A DNA stretch of 64,000 nucleotides. Origin: a candidate division FCPU426 bacterium. Its GTDB lineage: Bacteria; Oederibacteriota; Muellerivitia; Muellerivitales; Muellerivitaceae. Location: NCBI GenBank assembly GCA_963719085.1, contig CAVRAL010000004.1, positions 1,120,001 to 1,184,000 of the forward strand, written 5' to 3'. The notes beneath the pieces were generated by a model. It had not been told where the DNA came from, ran no database searches, and worked only from the letters and a program-made list of their open reading frames with translations. A program made the position numbers and the translations under genes. Positions within the stretch are counted from its first letter, which is position 1; the number at the start of each line of letters is the position of its first letter. This document shows positions 30,111-35,450 of this stretch, piece by piece.

Positions 30111-31379
30111 TTATGAGGTTTTTCTAAGGATATATATTTTCTTATAAGTGCCTAAGTAATCCTCTGGGCAAATTATTTTGTATCCATTTTTTCTTAATTC
30201 CAATTCAACTAAATAGTAAGTAATGGAAAACAAGCGCTTCTGAATTTCAAGCCATTCATTTTCATTTAATGTTTTTCCGTCCAAATGTTTTTGTTTGTAA
30301 ATATCAACCAGTCCAAGTTCTGGAACATAATTAAAGTCATCAAAATCAACGTTGTTGCAAATTTGATTGCCTTCATCAGGTCGGCCACCAAGCCAATGTT
30401 TAAATTCGTTATCGGTTACAAAAAACGGTTGAGATAAACTAGTTCTTACATCTTCGATCCACGGATCATTTATTTTGCTATATGTGGCTGAATCAACACC
30501 TAAACTTTCACACATGTTCAGAATAGTAGCGCCTCTGCTTCTCAAATCTGTTAAGTTGCCAATTGCCTTATCTATTCCTAGCGGAATTGGATAAAAAGCG
30601 GGTTTGCAAAGAAGCGCCTTCGGAAGTTGAGATAGTAATGGTGGAAGTGTATGTAATGTTGAAATCGGTGAAATTTGTTGATGTATTTGAGTGACAGGGT
30701 GTGTATTTTTTTCTGTTCTGGATCTGTTTAAGAAAAAGTAAAAAATATTTCCAAATAAAATTATTGATAATATAAAAACGGTTCTTCGATTGATCATTTT
30801 GAAAATAATGGCTTTTTGTTTTGGCTCCAGCTCGTGATTTCGATCATATTCCATAAGATCTCGCGGGTTGAAATTTTTGACTTCTACGGTTTCGTTGTAT
30901 ATTTTGGTTAAAGAGTTCCTATAAAAATCAAATAATCGTAAAAGCTTTTCTGCATCGGGCTTTGTTGAAAGTGGGTCCAGTGAGCCACCCTGAAGCAAGA
31001 ATTTTTTTTGCTCCTCTTCTCCCAAGGCCATTTTTAAAGCAACTGCAACCAGATATCTCCAATCTTGCATTTCACTTAGAGCAATACGATATTTTGTCGT
31101 AGGGTTTATGAAAGTTGGTAAATAAAGCCGGATTTTTAAATTTTCATCAATTCTTTTGTAAATGAAGCTTTTAAATGCCATTAGGGGTGTTGTATCGGCA
31201 TTTGATTTATTTCTAATCTTCCTAATTACTAAAGCCATCCAGTGAAATAAAAGAACAACACAAATACCAATAATCCCGGTCCCAATAGCTTTGACATATT
31301 GTGCATCTATCATTTGAACACCTGTTGCCAAACCGAAAAATATGACAAGTAAGTATTCAAAGTACGGTATTTCAGGCAT
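30111..31379 (-). CDS. AT-rich hypothetical membrane protein
   Basis: 422-codon ORF; two N-terminal hydrophobic helices plus a central one; composition far more AT-rich than flanks. Confidence 0.65.
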   Translation of the reverse strand: MPEIPYFEYLLVIFFGLATGVQMIDAQYVKAIGTGIIGICVVLLFHWMALVIRKIRNKSNADTTPLMAFKSFIYKRIDENLKIRLYLPTFINPTTKYRIALSEMQDWRYLVAVALKMALGEEEQKKFLLQGGSLDPLSTKPDAEKLLRLFDFYRNSLTKIYNETVEVKNFNPRDLMEYDRNHELEPKQKAIIFKMINRRTVFILSIILFGNIFYFFLNRSRTEKNTHPVTQIHQQISPISTLHTLPPLLSQLPKALLCKPAFYPIPLGIDKAIGNLTDLRSRGATILNMCESLGVDSATYSKINDPWIEDVRTSLSQPFFVTDNEFKHWLGGRPDEGNQICNNVDFDDFNYVPELGLVDIYKQKHLDGKTLNENEWLEIQKRLFSITYYLVELELRKNGYKIICPEDYLGTYKKIYILRKTS

Positions 31380-31600
31380 GTGTCATTGTATCCAATCGGA
31401 TTAATCGCGATTAAAAACAGGAATACTTATGATCTCTTGAACCCAAGCGATTAGTGGTTTCAAATACTATCTGCGCATTCGAGTATACAATTTCCCCTTA
31501 GCCCTGTTTTAAATTGAATAAAGGCGTTTTTTTGGCCTGTGGTGTAAAATAATCTTACGCTTTTTGAACCTCTAACCGGATAGGTCCCTTGAAAAAAACC

Positions 31601-31966
31601 ATGCTTAAAAAAGAAGACTGGGGCCTTCTGACCATCACGGCTTTGCTTTCGACTTTTGTTTTCCCTCCCTACTTCATTTACATCATGACCATGGCGGCCT
31701 TGACCGAGTTCGCCCATCTTTGGACCACGCGGCTTTCCCGGGAAGAGCAGGAGACTTTCATCGAGTTCGAGAAAGAATTCCGCAAAGGCTACAAACTGGA
31801 AAAAGCTGGGGAATGGAAGGCCGCGATTCAGTGGTATCAAAAACTGGAAAAACGTTATTCCGACCTGCCCCAAGCCAGCAAACTCGCCACGCTTCAAATC
31901 CGCAAGCTCCGTTCCGCCAAGAAACCCAAGGGCGCGCCGCCGGTCAAAAAGGGAAAACCGTCATGA
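31601..31966 (+). CDS. Small membrane protein with TPR-like helix pair
   Basis: N-terminal hydrophobic segment; [20 protein letters not shown]; stop overlaps next ATG (ATGA). Confidence 0.65.
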
Positions 31967-33858
31967 TGATCGCCCTTGTTTGCCGGGAATGCGGCCAGCC
32001 TTTGGAAGAGGCGAATCGGTTTTGTCCCGTTTGCGGGGCGCCCCGGGAACCCGTGGAGCGCCAAACTTACGAAGGCATCGAGGCTTTTGAGCAGGGGGAA
32101 TACGACAAGGCGCTGTCCCTTTTCAAAGGTGTGGCTAAAAAGCAAAACTTAAGCGCTTTCGCGCTGCGTGATGTGGGGCACGCCGCTTTTCACCTTCAGG
32201 ATGACAATCTGGCCCTGGATTATTACGAGCGGGCGCTTCAGGTTTACAAAAACCTTCTCGACGTCCATTTCAATGTGGGCCTCATCCATATGCGCCGGGG
32301 CCATGTCAATGACGCCATGTTCTCCTTTTTGGAAACGCTTCAACTGATCCACGCGCTCACGCCCGGCAGTTATTACCTGGGGCTTTTTCACACGGCGGAA
32401 ACCTTGACGCTTCAATGCCGGCTGAACTTGGGGATGCTTTTCAAGGAGCAGGGCGAGCTGGAGAAGGCGCTTGACCAATACCGGCTCATTTTAGAGAGCC
32501 ATCCGAAGAATGTGCTGGCCTTAGGCAATCTGGGCGACGCTTTAATGACTTTGGAGCGCTACGAGGAAGCGATTAAAACCTTTAAGAAGGCCCTCAAGAT
32601 CCTTCCCGAAAGCGACGAGAGGCTGAACCTCCAAAATGATTTGGGCGTGTCTTATTTCAAAAAGGGCGAGATTGAGAACGCCATCGTGGAATTTAAGGCG
32701 GTATTGAAGAAAAACCCCGACCATGTGAACGCCATCTACAACTTAGGCCAGGTTTATTATCACGAAGGGCTGACGGGCCGGATGAAGAAAGACTACGAGG
32801 AATTCGTGAAATCGTCCAAGGACGCGGCCTCGATTCTTTTCGCCCTCTCGAAATCCATGGTGTCGGTGGCCGCGGACGCCGAAAGGAACCGGGTGCAGGA
32901 TGATCCCGCCCTTATCGGCAACAGCACGGAGATGAAAAAAATACACGACCTCATTAAGCGGGCCGCCGCCAGTGACGCGACCGTGCTCATCCTGGGGGAA
33001 AACGGAACGGGAAAAGAACTGGTGGCCAAGGCCATCCACCAACAGTCCAACCGCTATGACAAACCCTTCATTCCCATCGCCTGCTCGGCCTTGAGCGAGT
33101 CGCTTTTGGAAAGCGAGCTTTTCGGGCATGAGAAGGGCTCTTTCACCGGGGCCATCGGGCAAAAGATGGGAAAGTTTGAGGCGGCGAACCACGGGTCGGT
33201 TTTTTTGGATGAGATCGGGGAAATCTCGCTGTCCACCCAGGTCAAACTGCTTCGGGTTTTGCAAGAGAGGGAATTTGAAAGGGTGGGAGGGACGGAGCCC
33301 TTGAAGGTGGATATCCGGGTGATCGCGGCTACCAACCGCGACTTGAAGCAGGCCATCAAGGCTGAACGGTTCCGGGAAGATCTTTATTACCGCTTGAACG
33401 TTATTGTGATTGAGCCCCCGCCGCTTCGGCGCCGGGAAGGCGATTTGCCCTTGCTCATCCGTTATTTTATCGACCGGCAGAAAACCAAGCGCTCCACGCG
33501 GTTTGAGGGGGCTTCCGAGGCGGCCTTGAAGATCATGGAAAATTACGCCTGGCCCGGCAACGTGCGGGAGCTTGAAAATGTGATTGAGCGCATCCTCACC
33601 TTAAATGACGATGTGCTGATTAAGCCGGAGCATTTGCCCGAGGAAATGATGGGCAAAAAGCCCCAGGATTCGCCCGAGACAAGAATCGCGACCGGGGTTT
33701 TGCCGGGCTCCAGCGTGTTGGAGTCAGTGGAACGGGAAATGATCGCCCGCGTTCTCAAGGAATCGGACTTCAATAAGAAACAGGCGGCGGTACGATTGGG
33801 CATCAGCCGGCCCACGCTTTATCAAAAGATCCGAAAATACGGGATTGAAGTTCCATAA
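31963..33858 (+). CDS. Sigma54-dependent enhancer-binding protein with N-terminal zinc ribbon and TPR repeats
   Basis: CRECG..CPVCG; several TPRs; [46 protein letters not shown]; Fis-type [15 protein letters not shown]. Confidence 0.92.
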
Positions 33859-33905
33859 ACGGAATAACCATTTAGGAATGAAGCCTGGAGTATGATTCGA
33901 TCGAG

Positions 33906-33966
33906 TGTAAACTAATTGAACAGTGTAAATATATTGTGTAAATTATATTTACAAATCTGATTTACA
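33906..33966. promoter_or_regulatory. Putative upstream activator sites for a sigma54 activator
   Basis: TGTAAA-N5-TGAACA (33906-33922) and perfect TGTAAA-N5-TTTACA (33937-33953), 31 bp apart; extra half sites at 33924 and 33961. Confidence 0.65.
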
Positions 33967-34025
33967 CGGGAAGGGATAAGTCAAATAAAGGGCCCTTTTT
34001 AAAGGCTTATCAAAAACCCCGCTTT

Positions 34026-34041
34026 TGGCATATCCCTTGCT
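34026..34041 (+). promoter_or_regulatory. Sigma54 (-24/-12) promoter
   Basis: TGGCATATCCCTTGCT: GG-N10-GC with consensus TGGCA and TTGC. Confidence 0.85.
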
Positions 34042-34050
34042 TATTAGTGG

Positions 34051-34138
34051 TACATCCGTGAGAGCGGAGTAGCCTTTTAACGAACCAAACCATTCTCACC
34101 TCCTTAGAGCCTCGGTCTTGACCCACCGGGGCTTTTTT
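34051..34138 (+). ncRNA. Putative sigma54-dependent small RNA (~88 nt) with anti-Shine-Dalgarno tract
   Basis: Starts ~12 nt after the -12 element; 5' hairpin TAC(A)TCCG-TGAGAG-CGGAGTA; unpaired TCACCTCCTTA; intrinsic terminator; no plausible ORF. Confidence 0.7.
34108..34138 (+). terminator. Intrinsic terminator of the putative sRNA
   Basis: AGCCTCGGT-8 nt loop-ACCGGGGCT + T tract. Confidence 0.8.
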
Positions 34139-34176
34139 ATTGCCAAAATTCACCTTTTTACATAGTGGCAAATCCA

Positions 34177-34284
34177 TTCACCGCACACGCCAAGGGCGCC
34201 AAGAAACCCATTGGCCGGATTGGTTTTTGGAGGATTTCAACCATTGCTTTTTTGTCTTGGCGAACTTGGCGTCTTGGCGGTGAA
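34177..34284. repeat. Palindromic repeat, CGCCAAG family
   Basis: TTCACCGCACACGCCAAGGGCGCCAAG ... CTTGGCGAACTTGGCGTCTTGGCGGTGAA. Confidence 0.8.
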
Positions 34285-34379
34285 ATTGTTTAGGCTTTAG
34301 CTCGTTTTTAGCCCCTGCTTGAGTTTCTTCTGTTGTGTTATCCTAGGCTTTGCCGCTTAAAACGCCTTGGAGGACACCC

Positions 34380-35450
34380 CTGAACGCCTACTGGATTATC
34401 CTTCTCATCTCCGCCGTGCTTTCCCTGGGGCTGACCCCCCTCTTTCGAAAAATCGCCCTTCGCACCAACTTCGTGGACAGCCCCAGCGGGCAGCTCAAAC
34501 GCCATACGGCCCCGGTGCCTTATTTGGGCGGGCTTGCCGTTTATTTCGCCTTTCTGTTGACCCTTTTTGGGGCCATCATTTTCTTATCCCCGGCGGACAC
34601 GCCCAAGATTTTGGCGGTGATTTTTGGGGGAACGATCATGGCCATCCTGGGGTTGGCGGATGATCTATTCTTTTTGAAGCCCGGTTTGAAGTTTTTAGTC
34701 CAGTTTGTGGCGGCGGCCTGCCTGATTATTTTCGGGGTCCATATCAAATTTATCTTTAACCCCTGGCTGGATTGGGTGATCACCCTTCTTTGGGTGGTGG
34801 GCGTCACCAACGCTTTGAACCTGATCGACATCATGGACGGGCTGGCCGGCGGCGTGACGGTCTTGGCGGCCCTGGCTTTTGTTTTCGTGCCTTTGGGCGG
34901 GGAACCCAACTACGTCAATTTGGTGGCGGCGGCCTTGGCGGGCAGCGCCTTGGGCTTTCTTCCTTATAACTACCAACCCGCTAAAATTTATCTCGGGGAT
35001 TCCGGGGCGCTCTTCATCGGGTTCGTCCTGGCCAGCGTGGCGATGGGCGAGAGCTATACCCAAACCAACGTGGTTTCTTTGGCCGCGCCGATTTTGATCC
35101 TGGGCATCCCGATTTACGACACCATTCTGGTGATGTTCCTGCGGTTCCTTAAAGGCAAGTCGATGTTCCAGGGTTCGCACGATCACCTGGCTTTGCGGCT
35201 TCGGTTTTTGGGAATGAGCGTGAAACAGGTGGTGCATTCGCTTTGGGGGTTGACCCTCCTTTGCTGCGGGGCGGCTTTCTTTTTGATCCGCCTGAGCGAA
35301 AAGCGCGCCTTTGTTTTTCTGCTGGCCTTTTTTTTCGCCGCCACCCTCTGGACCCTTTTTGTCGCCATGATCCCGATTGACGGGCCGGGAATGCGCGTGC
35401 CGGCAGCCAAGAAAAAGAAACCGCGAACCGCTCCGAAGTCCAAACGATGA
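34380..35450 (+). CDS. MraY/WecA-family undecaprenyl-phosphate GlcNAc-1-phosphate transferase
   Basis: PVPYLGGLA, GLADD, NALNLIDIMDGL, IYLGDSG, DHL; multi-TM; start CTG 34380 (after GGAGG) or TTG 34350. Confidence 0.9.
   Translation: MNAYWIILLISAVLSLGLTPLFRKIALRTNFVDSPSGQLKRHTAPVPYLGGLAVYFAFLLTLFGAIIFLSPADTPKILAVIFGGTIMAILGLADDLFFLKPGLKFLVQFVAAACLIIFGVHIKFIFNPWLDWVITLLWVVGVTNALNLIDIMDGLAGGVTVLAALAFVFVPLGGEPNYVNLVAAALAGSALGFLPYNYQPAKIYLGDSGALFIGFVLASVAMGESYTQTNVVSLAAPILILGIPIYDTILVMFLRFLKGKSMFQGSHDHLALRLRFLGMSVKQVVHSLWGLTLLCCGAAFFLIRLSEKRAFVFLLAFFFAATLWTLFVAMIPIDGPGMRVPAAKKKKPRTAPKSKR

Follow-up and report, generated by a model that had tools for sequence, protein, structure and literature searches.

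A candidate sigma-54-driven small RNA carrying a copy of the 16S rRNA tail, conserved in one order of an uncultured bacterial phylum

What is encoded between the gene for a sigma-54 activator and a WecA/MraY-like gene of the Glycos_transf_4 type (GT4) in a candidate division FCPU426 bacterium? The segment lies in a 64-kb stretch of contig CAVRAL010000004.1 (the window, meaning the whole stretch of DNA that was analyzed), which belongs to a host genome of 3.04 Mb that is 99% complete (G000). A first-pass annotation of the window had read the segment as a sigma-54 module driving a small RNA (sRNA). Our analysis points, with moderate confidence, to an sRNA gene of about 87 nucleotides (nt) that would be driven by sigma-54 and the adjacent bacterial enhancer-binding protein (bEBP), and whose C/U-rich tract would block Shine-Dalgarno (SD) sites in trans. 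As judged from the genomes compared, the RNA family is conserved across one order of an uncultured phylum of soil bacteria.

The control region of the unit was analyzed in the window and in the host genome. Two palindromic enhancer sites 31 bp apart had been described upstream of the RNA, and both were seen at that spacing (Table 1), with a third, partial site next to them. When sites were scored against the 14 consensus positions of GTGTAAA-N5-TTTACAC, one further pair in the genome reached at least 11 of 14 (C1:558365); it was rejected because it lies at the 3' end of a coding region and no sigma-54 promoter is close to it. The pair in the window is the only one in the genome that is joined to a sigma-54 promoter. 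The exact GG-N10-GC promoter of the first-pass annotation is present, but one base to the left of the span that had been implied. It is the only exact match to the sigma-54 pattern (scored as TGGCAY-N5-TTGCW) in the window and 1 of 13 in the genome. The RNA start was therefore placed near 34052 from the promoter spacing, and the RNA end was set at the terminator U-tract.

Table 1. Features of the sRNA locus in the window and of the protein gene found at orthologous loci
Feature	Position	Strand	Description
Membrane-protein gene	31601..31966	+	121 aa, TPR-like helical tail; stop overlaps activator ATG (ATGATGA)
Activator gene	31963..33858	+	631-aa sigma-54 enhancer-binding protein; zinc ribbon, TPR, AAA+, HTH_8
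Distal enhancer site	33905..33923	.	GTGTAAACTAATTGAACAG, form GTGTAAA-N5-TTGAACAG; 11/14 positions; center about -138
Proximal enhancer site	33936..33954	.	GTGTAAATTATATTTACAA; 13/14 positions; center about -107
Third, partial enhancer site	33949..33967	.	Overlaps proximal site
Sigma-54 promoter	34026..34041	+	TGGCATATCCCTTGCT, TGGCAT-N5-TTGCT; GG at -24/-25, GC at -12/-13
Predicted small RNA	34052..34138	+	About 87 nt; fold, covariance model R1, covariation
5' hairpin	34056..34067	+	CCG-UGAGAG-CGG; weak in the genus of the window
C/U-rich seed	34095..34105	+	CUCACCUCCUU; 34096-34105 = 16S 3' tail
Intrinsic terminator	34106..34138	+	11-pair stem 34106-34135, loop with GACCC (34120-34124), U6 tract (34133-34138)
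Extended -10-like element	34334..34344	+	TGTGTTATCCT; outside the RNA unit
Protein gene of about 62 aa	L121, L122, L123 and 13 more loci		Each directly after an activator ortholog

The transcribed region agreed with the earlier description of a short unit without an open reading frame (ORF) that ends in an intrinsic terminator: no ORF of at least 20 amino acids (aa) was found on the plus strand within 34052-34138, and the terminator has an 11-pair stem. The 88-nt stretch folded at -26.3 kcal/mol (z = -2.99), and 1 of 200 shuffled sequences folded as well. In the minimum-free-energy fold, GUGAGAG (34058-64) was paired with UUCUCAC (34093-99), so that the UCAC part of the seed was covered and CCUCC was about 80% unpaired. 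The 5' hairpin followed by an unpaired linker, as described before, was thus found in part: the hairpin is only CCG/CGG here and the linker is partly paired (UCAC), but CCUCC is mostly unpaired.

The C/U-rich seed was compared with the 16S rRNA of the same organism. Since the host 16S rRNA ends in ...GGATCACCTCCTTTCT, the sequence TCACCTCCTT (34096-34105) is identical to 10 nt of the genome's own 16S tail, as expected from the claim of an anti-SD-like tract; TCACCTCCTTA was located at 34096-34106. As a whole, the observation made in the first-pass annotation was confirmed, as the enhancers, the promoter, the ORF-less unit, the seed and the terminator are all in the sequence.

To follow the unit among relatives, we used a phylum set of 99 genomes, made up of the family of the window (31 genomes, G000 included), a sister family (1 genome) and other families (67 genomes). 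Seventeen RNA copies were aligned and built into a covariance model (R1), which was then searched through all 99 genomes. True matches were found as one copy in 30 of the 31 family genomes, G000 included, and in the single sister-family genome, whereas the other 67 genomes gave no true match. The only family genome without a match (G014) is 63% complete. As far as the contigs extend, every true copy is flanked by an activator ortholog on one side and the GT4 gene on the other. Because the whole set recurs in 31 related genomes, the arrangement is not due to chance. In a DNA search of 41 relatives, the part comprising seed and terminator was found at 80-94% identity in many genera, with each copy behind a sigma-54 promoter. 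The counts of RNA anatomy given below refer to the 31 genomes that have the RNA (30 of the family and 1 of the sister family).

Comparison of these genomes established that the promoter, the enhancer, the hairpins, the seed and the terminator are conserved. The GG and GC promoter elements of the sigma-54 form were present in all 31 genomes, which, with the conserved C/U tract, agreed with the conservation that the first-pass annotation had proposed to check. The distal enhancer site was also found in all 31, and both sites are inverted repeats centered near -107 and at -136 to -138. Their spacing was 28-31 bp in every genome and exactly 29 bp in 24. The proximal center fell at -106 to -109 in 24 genomes, at -98 in 2 and at -116 to -120 in 5; the off-position centers differ by about one helical turn.

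The RNA itself is 77-98 nt long among the 31 genomes. Its 5' stem-loop is followed by a single-stranded linker that contains AAACGAAUCAA, then by an A-rich stretch, the C/U tract and the terminator. In most relatives the 5' stem is long and bears a CGACAA loop. The terminator was found in all 31 genomes as a GC-rich stem of 9-14 pairs followed by 4-9 U, and its loop contains GACCC(A) in all of them and is predicted to be fully unpaired.

Covariation was measured on an alignment of 30 copies fitted to R1. We found that 95.7% of the cells pair and that 9 of the 15 pairs carry compensatory changes, a result matched by 0 of 500 shuffles; because the alignment was fitted to R1, these counts lean toward the model. 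All 5 modeled pairs of helix 1 were changed on both sides across the relatives, and controls with slid alignments fell to 18-62% paired. By these measures both hairpins covary. When all 31 RNAs were aligned with MAFFT, the divergent hairpins were placed wrongly and the consensus fold was poor, and the model-based alignment was taken instead.

The seed was conserved in both sequence and accessibility. CCTCC was found in 27 of the 31 genomes, CACCTCC in 22, UCACCUCC in 21, CTCACCTCC in 20 and TCACCTCCT in 14. The tract has a CUC core that was invariant in all 31 aligned sequences, the flanking Cs being nearly so, and it always lay 0-6 nt ahead of the terminator. The predicted probability that CCUCC is unpaired was at least 0.8 in 28 of the 31 genomes, with a median of 0.99. 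The unit therefore has the features of an sRNA gene, namely, a promoter, a terminator, no ORF, a covarying structure and a conserved unpaired seed.

Only in the genus of the window (seen in the window and also in G001) is the long 5' stem-loop swapped for a short one, with a loop, GUGAGAG, that can pair with UUCUCAC of the seed. If the modeled fold is correct, this loop may mask part of the seed within the same RNA.

Other matches to the unit were considered and rejected. A second R1 match in the host (G000:C4:192783-192869) is a terminator after a coding gene, and the R1 matches in family f8 (4 genomes), together with extra ones in G004 and G024, are terminators after ORFs with neither the promoter nor the activator nearby. 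A BLAST search of the unit elsewhere in the genome returned terminator-like fragments of at most 34 nt. A scan of 185,579 species genomes for the exact pattern gave 10 loci, of which 9 are family members by R1; the tenth (L080) was rejected because it matches the hairpin only.

The unit matched no described RNA family, as the first-pass annotation had anticipated: Rfam 15 at gathering thresholds found nothing in the window but a tRNA. The best sub-threshold scores were 16.6, 16.4 and 16.3 bits (E values of 0.6-1.6), where the cut-offs stand at 43, 50 and 41. These matches of weakest E value were ncS54, Betaproteobacteria toxic sRNA and mmgR, and they mostly covered the terminator. A literature search found no description of this RNA, and the accessible part of the literature naming 'Firestonebacteria' held no sRNA subject.

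How would such an RNA work? Since it carries a copy of the sequence with which the ribosome docks on mRNA, the predicted RNA probably blocks the translation of some mRNAs. In the mechanism that we propose, a small membrane protein, co-translated with the Zn-ribbon/TPR activator, would probably pass a signal to it, and the activator would bind its two sites (GTGTAAA-N5-TTTACAC, some 107 and 136 bp upstream) and switch on the sigma-54 promoter. The transcript would stop at the strong intrinsic terminator, giving an RNA in which a 5' stem-loop and the terminator hairpin flank a single-stranded, A-rich linker with CUCACCUCC(U) at its end. Its single-stranded C/U tract, a copy of 8-10 nt of the 16S anti-SD tail, would most likely pair in trans with the GGAGG(UGAG)-type ribosome-binding sites (RBSs) of mRNAs and block initiation without Hfq. 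The synthesis of the RNA, its control by this activator, its pairing with SD sequences and its target mRNAs are what we infer from sequence. The identity of the seed with the docking sequence of the ribosome raises the question of whether the RNA would have a few mRNAs as targets or affect strong RBSs in general.

We then searched the host genome for targets. A seeded genome-wide duplex scan found no credible specific target. The top duplex (C1:1272565, 17 contiguous pairs) was rejected because it is antisense inside an ORF of more than 728 aa, and a copy of GGAGGTGAG at C4:1236089 was rejected because it sits within a chemoreceptor-like ORF. Feedback of the RNA on the mRNA of the module itself was also rejected, as the best duplex reached -17.7 kcal/mol against a background median of -17.6. 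The genes with GGAGGTG and a start codon include those of pilin-like, HU-like and ACP-like proteins, names that we presume from their N-termini. In this genome the start of motA (GGGGAGGUGAGAUC-GUG) forms 10 bp with the seed, and the 16S tail matches it equally well. The strong SD of motA is conserved in 27 orthologs, in many of them as GGAGGUGAU, a better fit to the 16S tail than to the RNA. In genus group g13, the RNA reads (A/C)GCCUCC and motA reads GGAGGUU, which would be a joint change but represents one event only. The pilin-like, HU-like, ACP-like and motA genes are ordinary strong-SD genes.

The interpretation in the first-pass annotation therefore held for the module layout, the conservation and the lack of an Rfam match, but not for its target claim: the repression of mRNAs with strong AGGAGG SD sequences found no support, as the seed-complementary starts are few and belong to ordinary strong-SD genes. 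Since no specific target emerged, SD occlusion is deduced from the sequence, the position and the accessibility of the seed.

Several observations weigh against an RNA that acts by SD occlusion and is separate from the GT4 gene. The sequence GGAGGTGAG occurs 13 times in the genome, with about 2-3 copies at plausible starts, and the seed-complementary starts are indistinguishable from plain strong SD sites. Hfq (PF17209) gave no match in this 99% complete genome while control genomes matched. CCUCC is missing in 4 of the 31 genomes (G006, CACCUCU; G015, CUUCGUCUCUC; G017, AUCUCCUUC; G025, AUCUCCCC), all of which keep C/U-rich variants, and in the genus of the window predicted pairing with the 5' end takes up the UCAC part of the seed. 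The linker AAACGAAUCAA and the loop GACCC match or exceed the seed in conservation, and either could be the true functional site. Further downstream, a strict sigma-70 scan of the window region found no -35/-10 pair ahead of the GT4 gene, and 4 of 30 genomes, including G007 with a gap of 47 nt, have no promoter-like element before GT4.

The alternative that fares best retains a real, sigma-54-dependent RNA but places its activity in the linker AAACGAAUCAA or the loop GACCC, as a seed or a protein-binding site; we consider it unlikely. The conservation of these elements speaks for it, since all 31 genomes have GACCC in the loop and 28 have AAC(G/A)A in the linker, while CCUCC is absent from 4, and the terminator loop is predicted to be open. 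However, the CUC core of the tract is invariant, the tract keeps its place just ahead of the terminator and is predicted to be unpaired in 28 of the 31 genomes, and it is difficult to account in another way for an identity of 8-10 nt to the 16S tail. Aside from this, the invariance of a terminator loop is not normally expected, and GACCC may be a second contact surface of the RNA.

Could the unit instead be a 5' leader or attenuator of the GT4 gene, such that the sigma-54 promoter drives GT4 and the terminator is a regulated stop? Wherever the contig extends far enough, the RNA is found directly upstream of GT4 and in the same orientation, and the four gaps lacking a promoter-like element, with the 47 nt of G007, are consistent with such a leader. 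Nevertheless, we regard it as improbable. The terminator is strong in all 31 copies, and inspection of the 31 folds (inspection only) revealed no antiterminator pairing against the 5' arm of the terminator. The distance from the terminator to GT4 varies from about 50 to more than 380 nt, and in the window the gap holds a mobile palindromic repeat (34244-34300) with CTTGGCG-type octamers, which has many copies in G000 and its relatives and is inserted between the terminator and the GT4 gene in this genome. An extended -10-like element (TGTGTTAT) stands between the terminator and GT4. In 26 of 30 genomes its pattern TG[T/A]TAT[A/C/T]NT, mostly TGTGTTATAGT, was found no more than 250 nt past the terminator, as compared with 1.24 expected from shuffles, and the element in the window is likely the GT4 gene's own promoter. 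Orthologous activators of 13 other families drive a small gene (described below) with no GT4 gene nearby, and pairing of the seed with the GT4 leader (-16.6 kcal/mol) did not exceed the background median (-17.6 kcal/mol). The comparison thus indicates that the RNA unit is independent of the downstream gene, and the view that it is not merely the leader of the WecA-like gene, for which the promoter-like element in 26 of 30 genomes speaks, was borne out.

Likewise improbable is an RNA that never pairs with mRNA and serves as a decoy of the 16S 3' tail, titrating a protein or enzyme that recognizes the anti-SD end. The 10-nt identity to the genome's own 16S tail, the presence of UCACCUCC in two-thirds of the genomes (21 of 31) and the lack of a specific mRNA target would fit a decoy. 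In 16S rRNA, however, helix 45 precedes the 3' tail, whereas here the order is reversed and the tail precedes the hairpin; no candidate binding protein was identified, and any seed that targets SD sequences must resemble the anti-SD anyway. Hardly credible is a minus-strand peptide (AAGGAGGTGAgaATG and then 27 aa) for which the C/U tract would be the SD complement, possibly in a type I toxin-antitoxin-like pair: this genome has a perfect SD, a 5-nt spacer and an ATG, and most relatives have a TTG 4-12 nt after GGAGG, but just 8 of the 31 genomes carry the ATG and one lacks any start codon, the frames and stops shift and the lengths lie between 2 and about 50 aa, the hairpin substitutions are compensatory at the RNA level, and the conserved promoter and enhancer face the plus strand, so that a coding role of the minus strand was rejected for want of conserved starts, frames and lengths among the 31 genomes.

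For the favored reading, an sRNA driven by sigma-54 and its neighboring bEBP, the genes upstream were also analyzed. The activator matched Sigma54_activat (PF00158, 1.8e-72), TPR, HTH_8 (PF02954), Zn_Ribbon_1 and an AAA lid in Pfam; a receiver domain was not among these matches, and no NCBIfam equivalog was found at cut-off. Its AAA+ domain reads GSFTGA, which we take to be an accepted variant of the GAFTGA-type loop. Orthologs with 60-88% identity adjoin every RNA copy where the contig reaches. The overlapping gene upstream of the activator encodes the membrane protein, which had no family match in Pfam or NCBIfam. It is kept at 86% identity in L030 and 74% in L031, and in a distant family a homolog is the first gene of the module (L138 469-933). 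The protein is likely the sensory partner of the activator. The layout proposed before, with a membrane partner, a TPR activator and a sigma-54 unit, was thereby upheld by the overlapping genes, the enhancer, the promoter and the terminated ORF-less unit. The rpoN gene, whose presence had been left to be checked, was found in the genome as a 531-aa frame (PF04552, 214.6 bits); the genome also has about 11 bEBP genes.

We also observed a single enhancer-like site (GTGTAAAATAATCTTACGC, 31541-31559, 12 of 14 positions) about 40 nt upstream of the membrane-partner gene, and this site may serve autoregulation of the module.

What follows the activator in the rest of the phylum? Full-length relatives of the activator, found with its N-terminal 300 aa, are present in most other families, with 27-33% identity in that part and 37-43% over the whole protein. 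Eighteen such loci were fetched. In 16 of them we found the activator, 3-4 repeats of GTTAACA or GTTTACA, a sigma-54-type promoter with GG-N10-GC (TGGCAY-N5-TTGCW-like in 13 and more degenerate in 3), a strong SD and a gene of about 62 aa; in the remaining 2 the contig ends before this slot. The encoded protein follows the pattern M.YEC.VK.GH.GAGKY...GGVKKG..., in which GH.G.G and KKG are invariant. The first-pass annotation had missed this small protein gene, which replaces the RNA in the rest of the phylum.

A profile of the protein of about 62 aa matched 28 of the 99 genomes, in 13 other families, and none of the 31 genomes of the window's family or the sister-family genome; the host genome had no homolog, its best E value being 0.33. 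The RNA and the protein never co-occur among the 99 genomes. From these opposite patterns we conclude that the slot after the activator holds either a protein gene or an RNA gene, and never both, in the genomes searched. Eight families have neither, and these also have no full-length match to the activator. The orthologous module in the other families has no GT4 neighbor.

The protein has no Pfam family. Its structure model, a confident one (pLDDT 88), returned nothing at E of at most 0.001 in Foldseek, and the best Atlas score of 0.88 was to clusters without names. A eukaryotic ribosomal protein was rejected as a structural match because its VIA Z of 6.2 is within the stated noise. In family f8, the TPR part and the protein of about 62 aa are fused in one frame of 342-355 aa without AAA+ or HTH (L138 966-1994 (+), 342 aa; also G089 and G090), and this frame stands behind a small membrane-protein homolog. 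The fusion hints that the protein works physically with the TPR domain.

A module whose output is either a protein or an RNA is a natural case for the study of regulatory output exchange. A tentative and rather doubtful extension of our reading would be that one order has rewired the module, from the protein of about 62 aa as sole output to an RNA with an anti-SD tail that acts as an induced global throttle on the strongest SD sites. If this were true, the output of a regulator would have been swapped from protein to RNA with the upstream sensing intact, and the RNA would compete with ribosomes on highly translated mRNAs.

How does the module compare with known systems? Sigma-54 sRNAs beside their activators include Qrr1 beside luxO, CrcZ after cbrB, GlmY with GlrR and NrsZ after ntrC, in which a dedicated bEBP has the adjacent sRNA gene or genes as its main or only output. 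To our knowledge, these four are all proteobacterial, are mostly Hfq-dependent or protein sponges, and are driven by two-component response regulators. In contrast, Hfq was not found here, the activator has no receiver domain, and the RNA family is unrelated. The Pxr RNA of Myxococcus has three stem-loops and is not known to carry an anti-SD tract. Its regulator Nla19 is a response regulator, whereas the activator here has a Zn-ribbon/TPR N-terminus and a membrane partner.

The pxr gene of Myxococcus xanthus is described as intergenic and directly downstream of the sigma-54 regulator gene nla19, with its own sigma-54 promoter and enhancer site, several stem-loops and a position conserved across genera (PMC5568312). 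The two share an sRNA gene after a sigma-54 regulator, an own promoter and enhancer, stem-loops and a kept position. A second source describes the anti-SD CCUCCUCCC sRNAs of the cuckoo/CcsR (RSs0680) family, in which a C/U-rich motif is the only strongly conserved sequence and occlusion of the RBS was proposed (PMC4615179). An anti-SD-like C/U motif is also what our RNA shares with cuckoo/CcsR, Betaproteobacteria toxic sRNA and mmgR. The cuckoo/CcsR sRNAs display CCUCCUCCC in 2-4 hairpin loops, whereas here the hairpin loops read CGACAA and ...GACCCA and a single CUCACCUCC lies in the linear linker before the terminator.

We rated the RNA as a new sRNA family and as a module variant of a known layout, comparable to Pxr/Nla19. 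Unusual here are the length of the identity to the 16S tail and the alternation of protein and RNA at the orthologous activator. The locus thus provides a well-bounded sRNA family, with a probable dedicated activator, enhancer and promoter, for a phylum without a cultured member or described riboregulators. The unit is less than 250 bp and is accompanied by one activator gene, a size that would allow its study in a sigma-54-bearing heterologous host.

A few further observations were made around the locus. A divergent ORF on the minus strand (30111-31379, 422 aa) has an N-terminal membrane segment and no Pfam or NCBIfam match. Between the enhancer and the promoter lies an A/T-rich element, AAAGG(N)TTTTT (33985-34010 in the window), at about -51 or -61; the simple pattern was found in 11 of the 31 genomes, and the element may be a bend or a site of the integration host factor (IHF) type. 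Finally, CTG, or TTG in some genomes, seems to be the start codon of the GT4 gene; it follows a conserved (T)GGAGGAC at a distance of 6-8 nt (34369-34382 in the window, and in orthologs). In several genomes no alternative GT4 start codon is in frame, which points to a conserved non-AUG start behind a strong SD sequence.

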